Positions 4,212 to 9,850 of a DNA stretch of 11,352 nt are shown one piece after another. The stretch is from a virus (taxonomy: Duplodnaviria; Heunggongvirae; Uroviricota; Caudoviricetes). The notes below the pieces were generated by a model. That model saw only the letters and a list, made by a program, of their open reading frames with translations. It searched no databases and was not told the origin of the DNA. The stretch lies in the IMG/VR virus record IMGVR_UViG_2585427742_000014; one strand, written 5' to 3'. The number at the start of each line of letters is the position of its first letter. Position 1 is the first letter of the stretch. The position numbers and the translations under genes are program-made.

Positions 4212-4634
4212 TTAAAACGGTATGTTATCCCCGTACGGATCATCATTCCCCGCCTGTTGTTTTGCCCTGTTCAGCGCGTCAGTAGCCTGGCCCTGTTGAC
4301 CTTTTTTGCCGCCCAGTCGCGCCGTTCGCGCACTGATTACACTGTCTGCGATAACCTGCCAGCCCTGCCGCGTTTCTCCGTTCTGCCCAGTCCACTGGCT
4401 GATCTGCATGTTACCCGCCACGCTCAGGAGTTCACCCTTGCGGTGCCTTTCCAGTGCTTCGGCCTGTCTGCCAAATGCCAGGACGGATAACCACATCGTC
4501 GCCGTTCCGTCATCTGCCTGGCTGCACGGAAGGGGGACCGCCATACGCGCCAGCGTCATCGGTGTGCCCTTGCTGGTCTGTTTTACCTGCGGGTCGTCCA
4601 CCAGCCGCCCGTAAGCGGCTATCTGTGCTGTCAT
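4212..4634 (-). CDS. Single-stranded DNA-binding protein (SSB-like)
   Basis: 140 aa; an OB-fold-like pattern (GRLVDDPQ...TMWLSVLAFGRQAE...KGELLSVAGNMQISQWTGQNGETRQ) and an acidic C-terminal tip DDPYGDNIPF resembling the SSB DDDIPF tail. Confidence 0.75.
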   Translation of the reverse strand: MTAQIAAYGRLVDDPQVKQTSKGTPMTLARMAVPLPCSQADDGTATMWLSVLAFGRQAEALERHRKGELLSVAGNMQISQWTGQNGETRQGWQVIADSVISARTARLGGKKGQQGQATDALNRAKQQAGNDDPYGDNIPF

Positions 4635-4909
4635 GATTCCACCTCTCCGGTTTTAACGTTGATGGTTGTTACCTGTTCCGCTTCGGCAATCTCCCGTTCT
4701 GTCAGCGTGGCAAAGTTTGCCGCCGTCGTGGTCATGAATGCGCTTATCAGTTCGGGATGTGCTTTCGCGTATCCTTCCCCCGCGTGGCGGTCTATCGTTC
4801 TGATTGCCACCTTTAAAGCGTGCTCTGTCATGTCTAACGCGCGATATTTCGGTTCTGTTCTGTCTCTGCGTTTTTTGAGTGATTTATTAAATTTCCCTGA
4901 AGTGTGCAT
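4631..4909 (-). CDS. Hypothetical protein (up to 92 aa; start uncertain), translationally coupled to the SSB gene
   Basis: ORF track; ATGA overlap with the SSB start. No convincing RBS at either candidate start (4909 or 4831). Confidence 0.45.
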   Translation of the reverse strand: MHTSGKFNKSLKKRRDRTEPKYRALDMTEHALKVAIRTIDRHAGEGYAKAHPELISAFMTTTAANFATLTEREIAEAEQVTTINVKTGEVES

Positions 4910-4957
4910 ATTTATTTTTACCCCCTCGTTTAAAAAGTTTTGAGTTGTGCCTCCCCT

Positions 4958-5185
4958 TGTCTACCTTATCTACCTTAGTGGCCCTCATGCCAGTAATGGC
5001 GCGGCTTTCAGCGGGGTAGAGTGCTTTTATCCACTATCTACCCCGTGTCTACCTCCCTGTCTGACTCAGGTAAAATCAGGTAGAGAGGGTAGATAGTGGG
5101 TAGACAGTAAAAAAAAGCTATCTACCTAACTTAATGCACTGAATTAAATGTATTTTTCTTTACTCAGGTAGACAGGGTAGACAGC
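4958..5185. repeat. Iteron array with AT-rich segment; putative island replication origin just downstream of the primase gene
   Basis: At least 9 copies of GGTAGA(C/T/G)AG or its complement in both orientations: TCTACCTTA x2 tandem at 4960-4977, CTATCTACC 5035-5043, GTGTCTACC 5045-5053, GGTAGAG 5079-5085, GGGTAGATAG 5088-5097, GGGTAGACAG 5098-5107, GCTATCTACC 5117-5126, GGTAGACAG x2 tandem at 5167-5184. AT-rich stretch at 5107-5160. Confidence 0.7.
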
Positions 5186-7704: not shown

Positions 7705-7924
7705 GTACCCCTCCGCATTTTTTTTCGTTAGAAATAAGCGTTCTTCTTTCCTGTTCATCGCTCAGGAATACGCAGACCTCACCGCTAAGGCGTTTAAGTA
7801 AGCCGATGATTGCCCCTGATTCGCTGTCGGTCATCATGCCAGGGTAATCCTCTGCCAGTGCGCAAATAACTTCGATTTGGTGGGCGCGTTCTGCTGCCTG
7901 TTGTAGTGTGATTTCCTGACTCAT
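7694..7924 (-). CDS. Hypothetical small protein (76 aa)
   Basis: ORF track; ATGA overlap with the stop of the upstream 7921..8382 gene. Confidence 0.5.
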   Translation of the reverse strand: MSQEITLQQAAERAHQIEVICALAEDYPGMMTDSESGAIIGLLKRLSGEVCVFLSDEQERRTLISNEKKCGGVHVQ

Positions 7925-8382
7925 AAGCCTACCCCCTGACGAATACGGGCGACAAAAATCAGATGTGCGTGCGGCAGCTGTGCACGTGCTTCGCGCTCAG
8001 TGGCAGCGGTAACGGTGAATATTGCAATGCTGTCTGTCAGGCACTGCATAAAGCGCCAGACAAAATAAGGGCGTGCGGATACAGCCATGTGAAAGGCTCC
8101 CAGATGAATTTTAAGGAGTCTCGCTACTACGCTGTCAAACATGGTGGCGAGACGTAACAGGGTTGACAGACTGGTCATCTGGAAACCAGCGAGCACAAAG
8201 GCTCCCCCGTTACGCCCCGCCATAATGCGGGTATGGGTAGGTTTACGGACACAAAAAAACCGCTTATCGGATGTGGGCGGCTGTCCGCCAGATGTATTCA
8301 GGCTGTCAAACCCGGTCGCCATGTGGGCGACGGGGGAAGCATACAGCCCCGTGATAATTTTTTGCAAGCGGTTTTTACGCAT
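7921..8382 (-). CDS. Small protein, paralog 1, with a C-terminal motif shared with 8375..8578 (Icd-like/Ash-like small-protein type; start uncertain, alternative ATG at 8088)
   Basis: C-terminus YFVWRF...TAATEREARAQLPHAHLIFVARIRQG parallels the downstream paralog. The ATG at 8382 overlaps the upstream stop (ATGCGTAA) with AGGGG 7 nt upstream; the alternative ATG at 8088 has GGAG 8 nt upstream. Confidence 0.45.
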   Translation of the reverse strand: MRKNRLQKIITGLYASPVAHMATGFDSLNTSGGQPPTSDKRFFCVRKPTHTRIMAGRNGGAFVLAGFQMTSLSTLLRLATMFDSVVARLLKIHLGAFHMAVSARPYFVWRFMQCLTDSIAIFTVTAATEREARAQLPHAHLIFVARIRQGVGL

Positions 8383-8578
8383 GATATGACCCCTGGCGAA
8401 TACGGGCAGCGAATACCATCACGCAGCCAGCCGGAGATTGCTGACGCGCTTCCTGTTCGCTGGTGGCCTCGATGGTAATCACGCGCGGTTGTGCCGTGCT
8501 CAGGGCGATAAAACGCCAGATGTATTTATTCAGGTTGTACGAGTCCCGCCCTTGCGGGTGTCTGGTATAATTTCTCAT
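8375..8578 (-). CDS. Small protein, paralog 2 (67 aa), Icd-like/Ash-like type
   Basis: MRNYTRHPQGRDSYNLNKYIWRF...EATSEQEARQQSPAGCVMVFAARIRQG; GAGG 5 nt upstream of the ATG at 8578. This is the 3' end of the otherwise implausible 382-aa ORF. Family assignment is from memory and unverified. Confidence 0.5.
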   Translation of the reverse strand: MRNYTRHPQGRDSYNLNKYIWRFIALSTAQPRVITIEATSEQEARQQSPAGCVMVFAARIRQGSYHA

Positions 8579-8650
8579 AGCTACCTCGATACTTTCGCTA
8601 TCGTTGGTGGTTAGAAGCCCTGCATGTGTTCCAGCACTGCGGGGCTTTGC

Positions 8651-8755
8651 TGTACATACACCACAATCATTGGTGTGTGTACAGATTAAATTTAAGTGCG
8701 CTACAGTGTCAAGTGTTTTATTTACACACCTTTTGGTGTAATGTATGCACACCTC
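8651..8755. promoter_or_regulatory. Divergent promoter/operator region with inverted repeats built on CACACC / GGTGTG
   Basis: GTACATACACCA (8652-8663) and TGGTGTGTGTAC (8671-8682) form a 12-bp inverted repeat with one mismatch and a 7-bp spacer; further ACACACC / GGTGT / CACACC copies at 8724-8753. Lies between divergent genes starting at 8578 (minus) and 8775 (plus). Confidence 0.45.
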
Positions 8756-8774
8756 AAAATAACCGGACATTCTG

Positions 8775-9080
8775 ATGGCAACAGGAAATATCAACAGCAG
8801 ATCGCAAATGAAAAATATCCGCTTCCCCCATGATGTAATCGAGGAAATGGAAAATTCGAAAACGGAAGGGGAAACAATAGCCGCTTTCGTGATTACAGCC
8901 GTTCGCGGTGAGATCGCCCGCCGCCAGGCAGAAGGAAGCGGAGAAAATCCCCTGGTTTCTTCGCTCGATGCACTGGCGCAGGTGGAAAAAATCGGAGTCA
9001 AAGCAGCCGAGGAGATCGGGCAACTCATCACCGTCGCGCGTGAAGAACTCCAGCGTCGCAAGGCCAAAGAGCAGGAGTGA
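8775..9080 (+). CDS. Ribbon-helix-helix-like DNA-binding protein (101 aa; start uncertain)
   Basis: KNIRFPHDVIEEMENSKTEGETIAAFVITAVRGEIARR fits a beta-strand/helix/helix RHH pattern; non-repetitive charged composition. Weak SD at 8775. Confidence 0.55.
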   Translation: MATGNINSRSQMKNIRFPHDVIEEMENSKTEGETIAAFVITAVRGEIARRQAEGSGENPLVSSLDALAQVEKIGVKAAEEIGQLITVAREELQRRKAKEQE

Positions 9081-9137
9081 CCATCACCAGCGCCGTGGTG
9101 TAAGGTATTACGGCGCATTGCTATGCAGGACAACACA

Positions 9138-9311
9138 ATGACCGATAAAGAATTGACCAAAACATTATCACCGGCACGGAAAAGACGGCGCAGAAAGATA
9201 GAGCATGAATCAGAAAGATTCGCGCCATGTGCTTTTGCCCTTGAGCAATTCCTTAAAGAGTACAGGGAAAAGCGCTCATTGCAGGTATGGCAACGAACTG
9301 AACCAGACTGA
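9138..9311 (+). CDS. Small basic protein (57 aa from the ATG at 9138; the ORF starts at 9123)
   Basis: AGGA 7 nt upstream of the ATG at 9138; contains ARKRRRRK; followed by a strong terminator. Confidence 0.4.
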   Translation: MTDKELTKTLSPARKRRRRKIEHESERFAPCAFALEQFLKEYREKRSLQVWQRTEPD

Positions 9312-9406
9312 TTGCATTGCCCACCAGCCTGATAACGGCTATCATCCCCGTGCTTATGTTTGGGATCACACACACAAACGGCGCAGCGGGTTATCTGTTC
9401 AGAAAG

Positions 9407-9434
9407 GCGGCTCCATTTCGGGGCCGCTTTTTTT
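9407..9434 (+). terminator. Rho-independent terminator of the plus-strand RHH operon
   Basis: 8-bp stem GCGGCTCC / GGGGCCGC (one G-U pair), loop ATTTC, followed by T7 at 9428-9434. Confidence 0.7.
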
Positions 9435-9580
9435 ATACCTGAAAAACCCCAATTTTGTTGTTTTTCAGTTTCACCAGGGCGAACGAATCCCCGCCCACGT
9501 TCTGGCGTATATTCAATCTTCATGGTTATAGCTCTGTGTTCAGATGATTGATGTGTGGCGGCTGCGTGCCGCCAGCGTGA

Positions 9581-9850
9581 TTAATGAACTGCCTTGCAGC
9601 TATCCTTCCAGGCCAGAACCTCGGATAAAGACCAGCCAACGGAACGACCGCCAAGTTTACGACGTGATGGGAATTGTCCGGCCTTTTCCAGGCGGTAGCG
9701 ACACGTACGGCTAAGGCCGGTTAGTTTTTCGCATTCTTTTTCACGTATAAACCGATCAGTGCTTAACACTATTGCCCCCCTTTCGTTTCTTAAAGAGTCA
9801 TCAGGTGTCTTATTGTGTCGTATTGTTCCCGCTAGAGTGATGAATGGCAA
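9581..9850 (-). CDS. alpA: AlpA-family phage transcriptional regulator (MerR-like HTH)
   Basis: 89 aa; EKLTGLSRTCRYRLEKAGQFPSRRKLGGRSVGWSLSEVLAW matches the AlpA / CP4-57 regulatory protein signature as recalled; adjacent to the integrase. Confidence 0.85.
   Translation of the reverse strand: MPFITLAGTIRHNKTPDDSLRNERGAIVLSTDRFIREKECEKLTGLSRTCRYRLEKAGQFPSRRKLGGRSVGWSLSEVLAWKDSCKAVH

Follow-up and report, generated by a model that had tools for sequence, protein, structure and literature searches.

What keeps a Gram-negative phage-inducible chromosomal island (PICI) silent in its host? The activator, AlpA, is induced by the helper phage, and the repressor has been reported as unclear (PMC6092414). 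The question is raised by a viral sequence of 11,352 nucleotides (IMGVR_UViG_2585427742_000014; the whole stretch is called the window below), in which a short rightward unit opposes the rest of an island. The original prediction described this unit as a divergent mini-operon of a ribbon-helix-helix (RHH)-like protein and a small basic protein, which might act as an autoregulated switch of the adjacent leftward operon. Here we propose, with a probability of roughly 0.6, that the region serves a Gram-negative PICI as its switch for immunity and commitment, and that the two rightward genes would be its repressor side. For the mechanism of PICI silence, the region offers a candidate repressor, putative operators and specificity types.

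The island and the comparative set

Its sequence identifies the window as a Gram-negative satellite of PICI type, integrated in the tqsA gene of E. coli. It is a 99.9% match to an island that lies between split tqsA fragments. The annotation of this locus lists int, alpA, Icd-like genes, DUF4222, primase, ssb, capsid and decoration genes. The island thus has the composition that identifies a Gram-negative PICI, namely some 10-15 kb with int, alpA, a replication module and co-oriented phage-derived late genes. The alpA gene lies at 9581-9850 on the minus strand (PF05930, E 1.5e-16). A PADLOC search gave no defence-system match except a weak, spurious Csy2, which was also seen in Pfam and NCBIfam. 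The analyses below compare the window with a set of 21 related loci from several genera.

A conserved YlcI-type gene on the plus strand

Both predicted plus-strand ORFs were recovered. The first, at 8775-9080, encodes 101 amino acids and is a real, conserved gene of the YlcI/YnfO family: NCBIfam model NF041551 scores 64.2 bits (cutoff 30), with residues 9-50 aligned to profile positions 1-42 of 42, PGAP gives it the same family name, and phrog_6522 matches it over its full length (E 1e-48). We refer to it as ylcI, the proposed island repressor. Its product has 137 homologue clusters, and full-length homologues with 43-98% identity occur in E. coli, Salmonella, Citrobacter, Yersinia, Erwinia, Klebsiella, Serratia, Xenorhabdus, Photorhabdus and Pantoea. 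The Pasteurella satellite Pmp7 encodes a shorter and more distant relative (37% identity over residues 1-53), which was the sole match at the protein level in a phage collection. The gene is always opposed to the rest of the island and divergent from an Icd-like gene.

The ORF lies opposite a long open frame on the minus strand, described below, and we considered whether it might be a shadow ORF. This was rejected, as the family model, the ribosome-binding sites and the substitution pattern all favour the plus frame. A strong Shine-Dalgarno sequence precedes ylcI in most relatives, substitutions in the overlap are conservative in the plus frame (BLOSUM +0.12, compared with -1.00 antisense), and 93% of isolated wobble changes are synonymous in the plus frame, compared with 80% antisense.

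The N-terminal YlcI/YnfO domain (residues 9-50) is followed by a long C-terminal helix (residues 59-100). YlcI, whose AF2 model has a pLDDT of 81.5, is plausibly a small DNA-binding protein of the ribbon-helix-helix type, and its C-terminal helix would serve oligomerisation. In a Foldseek search the best small matches were Arc, CopG, AmrZ, CdbA and NikA, which superpose at 1.8-2.1 A over 35-41 residues, all with E > 1. Among the RHH family models the best match, the VapB-type PF07704, stayed below its cutoff (18.5 bits against 28.3, E 0.004), and a sequence-profile search of the PDB with YlcI returned no RHH protein below E 1. The library of papers that we searched had nothing on the function of YlcI/YnfO or on RHH proteins in PICIs. 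Later work on these islands assigned immunity RNAs to the Bro zone and does not describe the ylcI gene (PMC10111431). The "repressor" of EcCIMP1 is an unrelated PerC/ANR-like gene. On a broader reading that we offer tentatively below, YlcI-type proteins would be the master repressors left open when PICIs were described.

Repeats over two putative divergent promoters

The region between 8600 and 8770 had been described as intergenic. It is not a plain spacer: the minus strand is open throughout, and the left part, to about 8655, lies in a conserved plus-strand RNA. The repeats predicted there are present. The inverted repeat, given as 12 bp, is slightly longer, with 14-nt arms at 8650-8663 and 8671-8684 that are 93% complementary across a 7-nt gap; it would hold two GGTGTGT-type operator half-sites. 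Exact copies of CACACC/GGTGTG are unremarkable in number over the whole window (7, with 4.7 expected). Three of these lie within 82 nt (8672-8753), accompanied by imperfect copies at 8659-8663 and 8735-8739. A direct repeat at 8713-8754 consists of two 19-nt copies, 8713-8731 and 8736-8754, at a spacing of 23 nt, and contains the motif copies CACACC (8725-8730), GGTGT (8735-8739) and CACACC (8748-8753).

The two repeats overlie two putative divergent promoters. Both were read by eye, with conservation as support, as the strict rules of the promoter scan missed them. The leftward early promoter (8683-8712, minus strand) has its -35 element TTGACA at 8712-8707 and a -10 element that may be either TTAATC (8689-8684, 17-nt spacer) or TAATCT (8688-8683, 18-nt spacer); the inverted repeat covers the -10 and start. 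Other loci that we inspected carry TTGAC[A/G/C] or TTGCAA at the same -35 position. The direct repeat covers the putative ylcI promoter, for which we infer a -10 of TAATGT at 8739-8744 on the plus strand, a weak match in the window that stands at the same distance from the ATG as the clear TATAAT/TATACT -10 and motif of type-B loci.

Across the 21 loci the repeats are found near positions -100, -75, -52 and -28 relative to the start codon of ylcI, on either side of the conserved leftward -35. There are three to five motif copies per locus, and their sequence tracks the N-terminal type of YlcI. Proteins of the N-terminal type QLTTVRVP (E. coli, Xenorhabdus, Photorhabdus) go with the motif GGTGTGTTTCA, those with QSLTARIP (E. 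coli, Enterobacter) with GGTGTAAG, KK[NG]IRFPHELI (E. coli, Pasteurella) with GTGTGCG, QQINARFP (Phytobacter) with GATTCAC and QTVAARVPHEV (E. coli) with GTGTTGAACAC. At the position of the 8650-8684 repeat, other loci have a different motif, in inverted or direct orientation, that matches their own YlcI type. The motif does not track AlpA, the integrase or the Icd-like protein. Loci L013 and L017 have a common motif and YlcI type, while their AlpA proteins are 77% and 53% and their integrases 99% and 67% identical to those of the window; conversely, the Icd-like proteins of the window and L013 are 91% identical and the motifs differ.

A motif that follows the N-terminal type of YlcI and lies over two divergent promoters supports the repressor/operator idea: this covariation and placement are what a repressor/operator pair with immunity types would be expected to look like. 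The operators adjoin the N-terminal coding region, so the covariation could in part be linkage, although linkage would not account for the concerted change of all motif copies within one locus.

Could the inverted repeat work at the RNA level, as a terminator or stabiliser hairpin, instead of serving as a protein operator? Its plus strand folds well (-21.8 kcal/mol, z -5.6) and was listed by the terminator scan, and between the window and L015, which has the same YlcI type, a C-G pair has become T-A in both arms. Yet in Pantoea and Lelliottia (L009, L010) the two copies at this position point the same way, at a distance of 23 bp, and are unable to pair, more motif copies sit at the ylcI promoter, and the tail, AUUAAAUUUA, makes a poor U run. 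We consider it very unlikely that the repeat acts as a hairpin instead of an operator.

A different target for YlcI is also conceivable. The protein may autoregulate without being the island's repressor and act mainly on the helper phage, for example by interfering with or sensing its DNA near cos, the location of the prophage paralogues ylcI and ynfO, leaving the leftward operon under the control of RNA and AlpA only. PICIs are known to redirect helper packaging. The E. coli K-12 relatives YlcI and YnfO, from the cryptic prophages DLP12 and Qin, have the same N-terminal domain (NF041551), and there too a small gene opposes a long one-directional operon; they differ in that the proteins are short (YlcI has 64 amino acids), that ylcI adjoins the DLP12 cos, opposed to the late operon, and that the antisense frame has only 90 codons. 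AlpA has been reported as sufficient to induce EcCICFT073 (PMC6092414). What makes a helper target unlikely is that in all types the motif copies reach beyond the ylcI promoter to overlap the spacer and start of the leftward promoter, and that the specificity types are many and island-specific, a pattern more in keeping with self-immunity than with one target common to phages.

The small basic ORF and the terminator

The second gene of the plus-strand unit, orf62, runs from 9123 to 9311 (62 amino acids) or, from its second ATG, from 9138 to 9311 (57 amino acids). Its homologues and the match to phrog_21027 (E 1.6e-15, from residue 6) begin at the second ATG, and an AGGA lies 7 nt upstream of the orf62 ATG. 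The N-terminus is arginine-rich (ARKRRRRK). The AF2 model is a single helix (29-59) and gives no functional lead, and nor does an exhaustive HMM search, which found only 9 clusters among 1.84 billion representatives. Among the homologues the start is conserved and indels are in-frame. The coding-strand tests disagree for this ORF, BLOSUM scores pointing to the plus frame and wobble synonymy slightly to the minus frame, and orf62 might still be a shadow ORF.

The pairing of the RHH-like gene with a small basic protein did not hold up beyond Escherichia and Shigella, to which all 36 homologue clusters of orf62 belong. In the 11 loci from other genera ylcI stands alone before the terminator, L016 has orf62 without ylcI, and in L014 and L021 an orf62-like ORF is preceded by a different RHH-like ORF.

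These distributions bear on whether ylcI and orf62 might be a toxin-antitoxin or addiction pair, an autoregulating RHH antitoxin and a small toxin that would stabilise the island and not control its induction. An RHH gene followed by a small ORF, with repeats at the promoter, is a typical type II layout, the weak match of YlcI to PF07704 is to a VapB-type family, and in L014 and L021 the small ORF likewise follows an RHH-like ORF. However, orf62 is absent from the 11 loci of other genera, the gene content of L016 would be lethal if orf62 were a toxin, and the repeats extend over the leftward promoter as well. The conserved toxin-family partner that marks type II systems is missing, orf62 having no toxin-family match in Pfam, NCBIfam or PADLOC. 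We therefore hold an addiction pair to be highly improbable. There is no indication that either plus-strand protein is an antirepressor.

The strong intrinsic terminator that had been predicted lies at about 9403-9435, a hairpin at approximately 9403-9431 followed by seven U. The plus strand folds with -22.4 kcal/mol (z -4.3, a value that none of 200 shuffles matched), whereas the minus strand reaches -14.6 kcal/mol and has no U run, which suggests that the terminator acts in one direction only. It was not listed by the consensus terminator scan. A plus-strand terminator closes the ylcI unit in most relatives.

A long open frame opposite the plus-strand genes

On the minus strand, a frame is open from 9580 to 8375, beginning directly after the alpA stop and in the alpA frame. 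From its first ATG it comprises 382 codons (9523-8375), antisense to the terminator, orf62, ylcI, the putative operators and the RNA element; we call it eta-like. Its 3' end is an Icd/Kil-like domain, which PGAP annotates as a nested ORF of 67 amino acids (8375-8578), the first gene of the leftward early operon. This ORF matches NF033153 with 69.7 bits and phrog_6196 with E 4e-43. The scored interval was 8375-8581; the ATG is at 8578-8576, and the one additional Ala codon has no bearing on the results. Annotations of the region vary between an Icd-like pseudogene, a "transcriptional repressor" and a hypothetical protein, and in Pmp7 ylcI is unannotated.

The equivalent phase is open in 19 of the 21 loci, where it spans 216-608 codons; the remaining two have much shorter frames, of 150 and 90 codons. 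L002, L010 and L019 have an interrupted or short frame, and in L013 and L017 the frame stops about 17 nt before the Icd-like start. Antisense openness within ylcI itself is unremarkable: resampling of synonymous codons gave probabilities of 0.04-0.96 per gene, mostly 0.15-0.6. As this is not significant per gene it was not used, and the evidence comes from the flanks, where the frame is free of stops (per-locus shuffle probability 0.000-0.06) and the other phases have 1-14. Except where it overlaps ylcI and at its Icd-like end, the frame encodes a sequence that is unconserved between genera and rich in serine, arginine and cysteine, and Pfam has no domain in four long frames from different loci. 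From these patterns, this appears to be a clear case of a frame that is conserved for openness and not for the sequence it encodes.

The frame could still encode a fast-evolving functional protein, Eta- or Bro-like with an Icd-like C-terminus, on which the plus-strand ORFs have been overprinted. In favour of this, the frame is open in nearly all loci, parts of it have been called as CDS by PGAP and by the Pmp7 annotators, and P4 Eta has a Pfam Ash domain. The lack of conservation and of domains described above argues against it, as do the substitutions in the overlap, which fit selection on the plus frame and not on the minus frame, and the stops in L013 and L017. A functional protein is, in our estimation, distinctly unlikely.

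In L006, L007, L009, L015 and L022 the first start of the frame overlaps or abuts the stop of the upstream gene; in the window 57 nt separate the first ATG from the end of alpA and its ribosome site is poor, which makes coupling less evident here than elsewhere. A frame apparently kept open whatever it encodes, with a real gene opposite sharing its wobble positions, is treated inconsistently by annotation pipelines. The placement of presumed repressor-side genes antisense inside a conserved open frame seems to be undescribed. The divergent mini-operon of the original prediction thus stands in part, in that ylcI is divergent and in most loci followed by a terminator; the unit is not free-standing, since it is antisense inside an open frame.

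RNA elements and a second Icd-like unit

The plus strand also carries a conserved predicted RNA structure (8577-8662), which spans the ribosome site of the Icd-like gene and consists of a first stem-loop with an anti-Shine-Dalgarno sequence, a hairpin of about 12 bp and a T-rich tail. The RNAalifold consensus for this strand has -24.96 kcal/mol and 22 pairs, 10 with compensatory changes and many G.U, compared with -5.8 kcal/mol and 8 pairs for the minus strand. The single-sequence z-scores are -4.6 and -1.4, respectively. A search with our model R1 found a single plus-strand match at the start of the Icd-like gene in each locus, L009 and L016 among them, which were not used for training. Just upstream lies an extended -10 element (TGgTATAAT, 8563-8571), with a conserved TAnnnT hexamer upstream of the RNA; this -10 falls inside codons of the Icd-like gene, so its conservation could come from coding. 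The element is a candidate cis-antisense RNA to the Icd-like ribosome site.

In Rfam, no family fits this RNA. The SymR model gives 25.4 bits, below its gathering score of 61, and the RNA is thus not a member of that family. It resembles the SymR/SymE type I system in that a short structured RNA faces the ribosome site of a small protein that may be toxic, and differs in being a predicted transcript. The P1 protein Icd blocks cell division.

Further along the leftward operon a 153-aa ORF (7921-8382, minus strand) forms a second eta/kil-like unit. It holds a C4/CI-type immunity RNA at 8140-8227 (RF01695, 72.6 bits, gathering score 45; P4 CI scores 74.9 bits with the same model) and its a1/b1 target, which is P4 seqA-like, at 8295-8344 (RF03163, 46.8 bits, gathering score 46.7), both on the minus strand. 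Residues 107-149 match NF033153 with 49.9 bits, and the true icd start of this unit is likely the ATG at 8088 (55 amino acids). The geometry of the unit matches P4 eta/kil. In most relatives the ylcI unit is present and C4 is absent.

The predicted autoregulated switch over the leftward operon therefore fares well in one respect, namely that the repeats lie on both promoters and track the YlcI type, and has to be extended in another, as the structured RNA and C4 with a1/b1 would add further layers of control.

A model for silence and induction

We suggest the following model. In the quiescent state the plus-strand unit of ylcI, orf62 and terminator would be expressed. YlcI would bind the GGTGTGT/ACACACC-type repeats over its own promoter and over the leftward early promoter, which is expected to drive the Icd/Kil-like gene, the C4 RNA module and the replication genes; occupancy of both would repress the island and autoregulate ylcI. 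As a second brake, the RNA at 8577-8662, complementary to the Icd-like Shine-Dalgarno sequence and start, would probably block Icd-like translation. On induction, by analogy with P4 eta/kil, the helper phage would turn on alpA and the transcript would read leftward into 9523-8375, where ribosomes on the long frame may keep Rho off, as in P4 eta. Transcription would thereby enter from outside, across orf62, ylcI and the operators, bypassing the repressed promoter, and the convergent transcription from alpA would simultaneously oppose ylcI expression.

A more general claim is that PICIs carry an unrecognised three-part device of multi-specificity YlcI master repressors, an antisense-embedded repressor gene and a new family of cis-antisense RNAs. 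This we offer tentatively, with somewhat more doubt than belief. If it is true, a spacer ORF is selected only for translatability, AlpA read-through bypasses and silences the repressor at once, and the new RNA family guards the Icd/Kil-like gene.

The closest parallel is the P4 immunity region (PLL, vis, PLE and eta/kil). As described in PMC10111431, P4 Eta has the upstream late promoter as the only source of its translation, which is coupled to the alpA homologue and keeps transcription from terminating, and Kil functions in cell killing. Both systems have the order alpA/vis, a long ORF ending in a small Icd/Kil-like ORF, and replication genes. The small ORF is nested within the long one (65 in 214 amino acids in P4, 67 in 382 and about 55 in 153 in the window), a promoter is internal to the long ORF (in the window, the conserved -35 at 8712-8707), and the C4/CI RNA and a1b1/seqA are present with similar Rfam scores. 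The window differs in having two eta/kil-like units in tandem, of which the 153-aa unit has both C4 and seqA and the 382-aa unit neither (apart from the sub-threshold SymR, Rfam has no match in 8375-9523). The latter instead holds the counter-oriented ylcI and orf62, the terminator and the plus-strand RNA, whereas P4 has no ylcI and no match to model R1. Nor does the long frame of the window have the Ash domain of P4 Eta.

In immI of P1 and P7 (c4 RNA, icd and ant), as in the window, a C4 RNA and a1/b1 lie upstream of an Icd-like ORF, with the window's elements above their Rfam gathering scores. The window's module differs in lying at 7921-8382, outside the plus-strand unit, and in having no ant gene after it.

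In immI of P22, the ribbon-helix-helix repressors Mnt and Arc act at the divergent promoters Pmnt and Pant. The window resembles it in its small, plausibly RHH protein, whose C-terminal helix possibly oligomerises as in Mnt, and in repeats lying across divergent promoters, of which one would drive an operon that has Ant/Bro genes in related islands. The differences are that YlcI has no detectable sequence similarity to Arc or Mnt and its fold match is not significant, that the leftward operon of the window has no second repressor gene, and that ylcI is antisense within a putatively translated frame.

Finally, 1814 of 5426 complete E. coli genomes, about a third, have a region resembling this one.

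The island and its plus-strand genes

The window is 99.9% identical to an E. coli chromosome, where it forms an island of about 11.3 kb that separates the two halves of tqsA. Its genes (integrase, alpA, two Icd-like ORFs, several small ORFs, DUF4222, primase, ssb, major capsid and head decoration) are laid out as in the Gram-negative phage-inducible chromosomal islands (PMC6092414, PMC10111431). The minus strand encodes all but the two ORFs picked out by the original prediction, ylcI (8775-9080, 101 aa) and the small basic orf62 (9123-9311, 62 aa). The strong terminator proposed to end this unit was also recovered, on the plus strand only (-22.4 kcal/mol, z -4.3, seven U). With the repeats described below, this confirms the original description. 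Among 5426 complete E. coli genomes, 1814 contain something similar to this region.

Elsewhere in the island, the interval from the primase gene to the following ORF holds a very long hairpin made of GGTAGA/TCTACC repeats (5015-5125, -56.6 kcal/mol, z -9.2). Possible roles are a replication origin, an iteron cluster or a terminator, and both strands give weak matches to microRNA precursors in Rfam. The int-alpA RNA (RF02996) was not detected by an Rfam search of the window; it scores above threshold between int and alpA in four related loci from other genera (L005, L006, L007 and L009).

YlcI and its putative operators

On the NF041551 model the RHH-like protein scores 64.2 bits over residues 9-50 (cutoff 30), which places it in the YlcI/YnfO family, and phrog_6522 matches all 101 residues. 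Full-length homologues of 53-98% identity occur across the Enterobacterales, with loci recovered from Enterobacter, Xenorhabdus, Photorhabdus, Pantoea, Lelliottia, Phytobacter and a contig labelled Martelella. A Pasteurella satellite encodes a shorter relative, 37% identical over residues 1-53. The AlphaFold model (pLDDT 81.5) consists of an extended N-terminal segment, helices at 19-28 and 35-54, and a long helix at 59-100. Among 17 homologues, replaced residues score +0.12 by BLOSUM62 in the plus frame versus -1.00 in the antisense frame, and isolated wobble changes are synonymous in 93% versus 80% of cases, a pattern that fits protein selection on the plus frame. In K-12, ylcI (DLP12 prophage, locus L024, 4752-4946) adjoins the prophage cos site and points against the late operon.

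The idea that YlcI is a repressor acting at operator-like repeats draws its main support from the ylcI upstream regions of 21 loci, where a repeat motif varies with the YlcI N-terminal type and its positions stay fixed. These regions share one plan, a leftward -35 (TTGACA in the window, 8712-8707, minus strand) together with motif copies at constant positions. The copies at about -100 and -75 from the ylcI ATG fall within the spacer and start region of the leftward promoter, and those at about -52 and -28 over the ylcI -10 and start region. The QMKNIRFP type of the window (E. coli) goes with CTGTACA[TC]ACACC, QLTTVRVP (E. coli, Xenorhabdus, Photorhabdus) with GGTGTGTTTCA, QSLTARIP (E. coli, Enterobacter) with GGTGTAAG/CTTACAC, QIKNVR[VI]P (Pantoea, Lelliottia) with GGTGTG[CT]AT, KK[NG]IRFPHELI (E. 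coli, Pasteurella) with GTGTGCG, QQINARFP (Phytobacter) with GATTCAC and QTVAARVPHEV (E. coli) with GTGTTGAACAC. The concerted change of all copies inside one locus goes beyond what linkage alone can account for; across the loci, the motif does not co-vary with AlpA, the integrase or the Icd-like protein.

In the window, three CACACC/GGTGTG copies lie within 82 nt upstream of ylcI (8672-8753), with imperfect copies at 8659-8663 and 8735-8739 and a 19-nt direct repeat at 23-nt spacing. Over the whole window CACACC is not enriched (7 copies, 4.7 expected). The inverted repeat, originally put at 12 bp, has arms of 14 nt (8650-8663 and 8671-8684, 93% complementary, 7 nt apart). A general hairpin role for the leftward repeat was ruled out, because Pantoea and Lelliottia carry the two copies at this promoter as direct repeats 23 bp apart.

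A long open frame antisense to ylcI

An open frame of 402 codons (9580-8375, minus strand; 382 aa from the first ATG at 9523) begins at the alpA stop codon, in alpA's own frame, runs antisense to ylcI and orf62, and has an Icd-like domain at its end. In this phase relative to ylcI the two strands share their wobble positions, and 19 of 21 loci keep it open over 216-608 codons, among them those with short YlcI variants and the AT-rich Pasteurella satellite; it reaches 608 codons in the E. coli island L014. It is shorter in L002 (150 codons) and in the prophage copy of K-12 (90 codons). In the flanks of ylcI (190 nt upstream, 300 nt downstream) this phase is usually stop-free, whereas the other two minus phases hold 1-14 stops; dinucleotide shuffles gave per-locus probabilities of 0.000-0.06 for this openness. 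The protein sequence is unconserved except at the ylcI overlap and the Icd-like end, a Pfam search of four long frames from different loci found no domain, and the predicted product looks unlike a natural protein. In several loci the first start codon of the frame lies against, or overlaps, the stop codon of the gene before it.

The same nesting is seen in P4, where Eta ends in Kil (65 aa, Icd-like). Eta is translated solely from an upstream late promoter, in coupling with the alpA homologue, and this translation keeps termination from occurring (PMC10111431). Because of this nesting and the published role of Eta translation, we propose that the 382-aa frame is an eta-like translated spacer. 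Forti et al. (1999) reportedly agree with the account of Eta translation and termination.

A GC-rich hairpin without a U run (GGCGGC...GCCGCC, 9555-9583, minus strand) lies directly 3' of the alpA stop. In Pasteurella phage Pmp7, the deposited annotation names the long minus frame a 224-aa 'transcriptional repressor' (4435-5109) and leaves the ylcI-like gene on the opposite strand (4853-5032) without annotation. The P4 cI was once annotated as a protein and is now known as an RNA, and the Pmp7 label seems to be inherited from that old annotation.

Structured RNAs at the Icd-like genes

A direct counterpart of P4 eta/kil is a 153-aa ORF (7921-8382) that contains the C4/CI RNA (8140-8227, minus strand, 72.6 bits in Rfam) and the a1/b1 target of C4 RNA (8295-8344, minus strand, 46.8 bits) and ends in an Icd-like domain. 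This RNA module is missing in most relatives. The ORF is annotated merely as 'Icd-like protein', despite its P4/P1-type RNA immunity module, and also holds a sub-threshold isrK-like match (8253-8331, minus strand). A PLE-like promoter can be read just 5' of the module (TTGCAA 8367-8362, TATGCT 8343-8338).

A second element lies on the plus strand at the start of the other Icd-like gene (8577-8662). Its consensus folds at -24.96 kcal/mol with 22 pairs, 10 of them with compensatory changes and many G.U, versus -5.8 kcal/mol on the minus strand; the structure is conserved on the plus strand only. A covariance model of the element found one match at the Icd-like start in every locus, even in L016, which lacks ylcI, and no match in P4. 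An extended -10 (TGgTATAAT, 8563-8571) precedes it, and its 3' end is a hairpin with a T-rich tail. Its complementarity to the Shine-Dalgarno and start region of the Icd-like gene makes a cis-antisense RNA the most likely interpretation. Rfam offered no fitting family (SymR reached 25.4 bits, below its gathering score of 61).

A model for the proposed switch

In the silent island, YlcI would occupy the leftward promoter and its own, while the structured plus-strand RNA and C4 would block both Icd-like genes. Once a helper phage infects, transcription driven by AlpA would enter from outside and cross the unit, sustained by translation of the long frame, possibly with the involvement of Rho. This would overcome the repressor and also hamper transcription of the repressor gene itself. 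The sequence comparison shows the gene identities, the layout, the covariation, the preserved openness of the long frame and the strand-specific RNA structure; DNA binding, regulatory direction, frame translation, a part for Rho and the RNA itself are inferred.

The component parts are of known kinds: P4 eta/kil with CI RNA, P22-like small repressors at divergent promoters, and antisense RNAs over toxic small genes. Our literature search found neither their combination nor a repressor gene antisense within a frame conserved just for its openness.

The small basic ORF

Both genes of the proposed mini-operon are present here, but orf62 is missing outside Escherichia and Shigella; the two-gene arrangement is a local elaboration. 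The orf62 homologues begin at the second ATG (9138, 57 aa), with AGGA 7 nt upstream. The family is tiny, with 36 clusters at 90% identity and, in a set of 1.84 billion representatives, 9 clusters. ylcI is followed by orf62 in eight E. coli loci, mostly in frame with it and one stop apart; L016 has orf62 without ylcI, and in the E. coli islands L014 and L021 it lies 3' of a different RHH-like ORF. Coding tests of orf62 conflict with each other, and its structure model shows a disordered basic N-terminus and then one helix; it is probably a real small protein.

In the window the two genes share one reading frame, separated at 9078-9140 by a single TGA and 14 sense codons, and the same arrangement is seen in L013, L015, L017, L018, L020 and L022. 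Sharing of wobble positions with the long minus frame could have produced it as a side effect; alternatively, it could allow read-through. L014 (3079-3960) and L021 (2598-3486) carry a second plus-strand unit, in which a 75-aa ORF is accompanied by another copy of the structured RNA element, the different RHH-like ORF (57 aa) and an orf62-like ORF.
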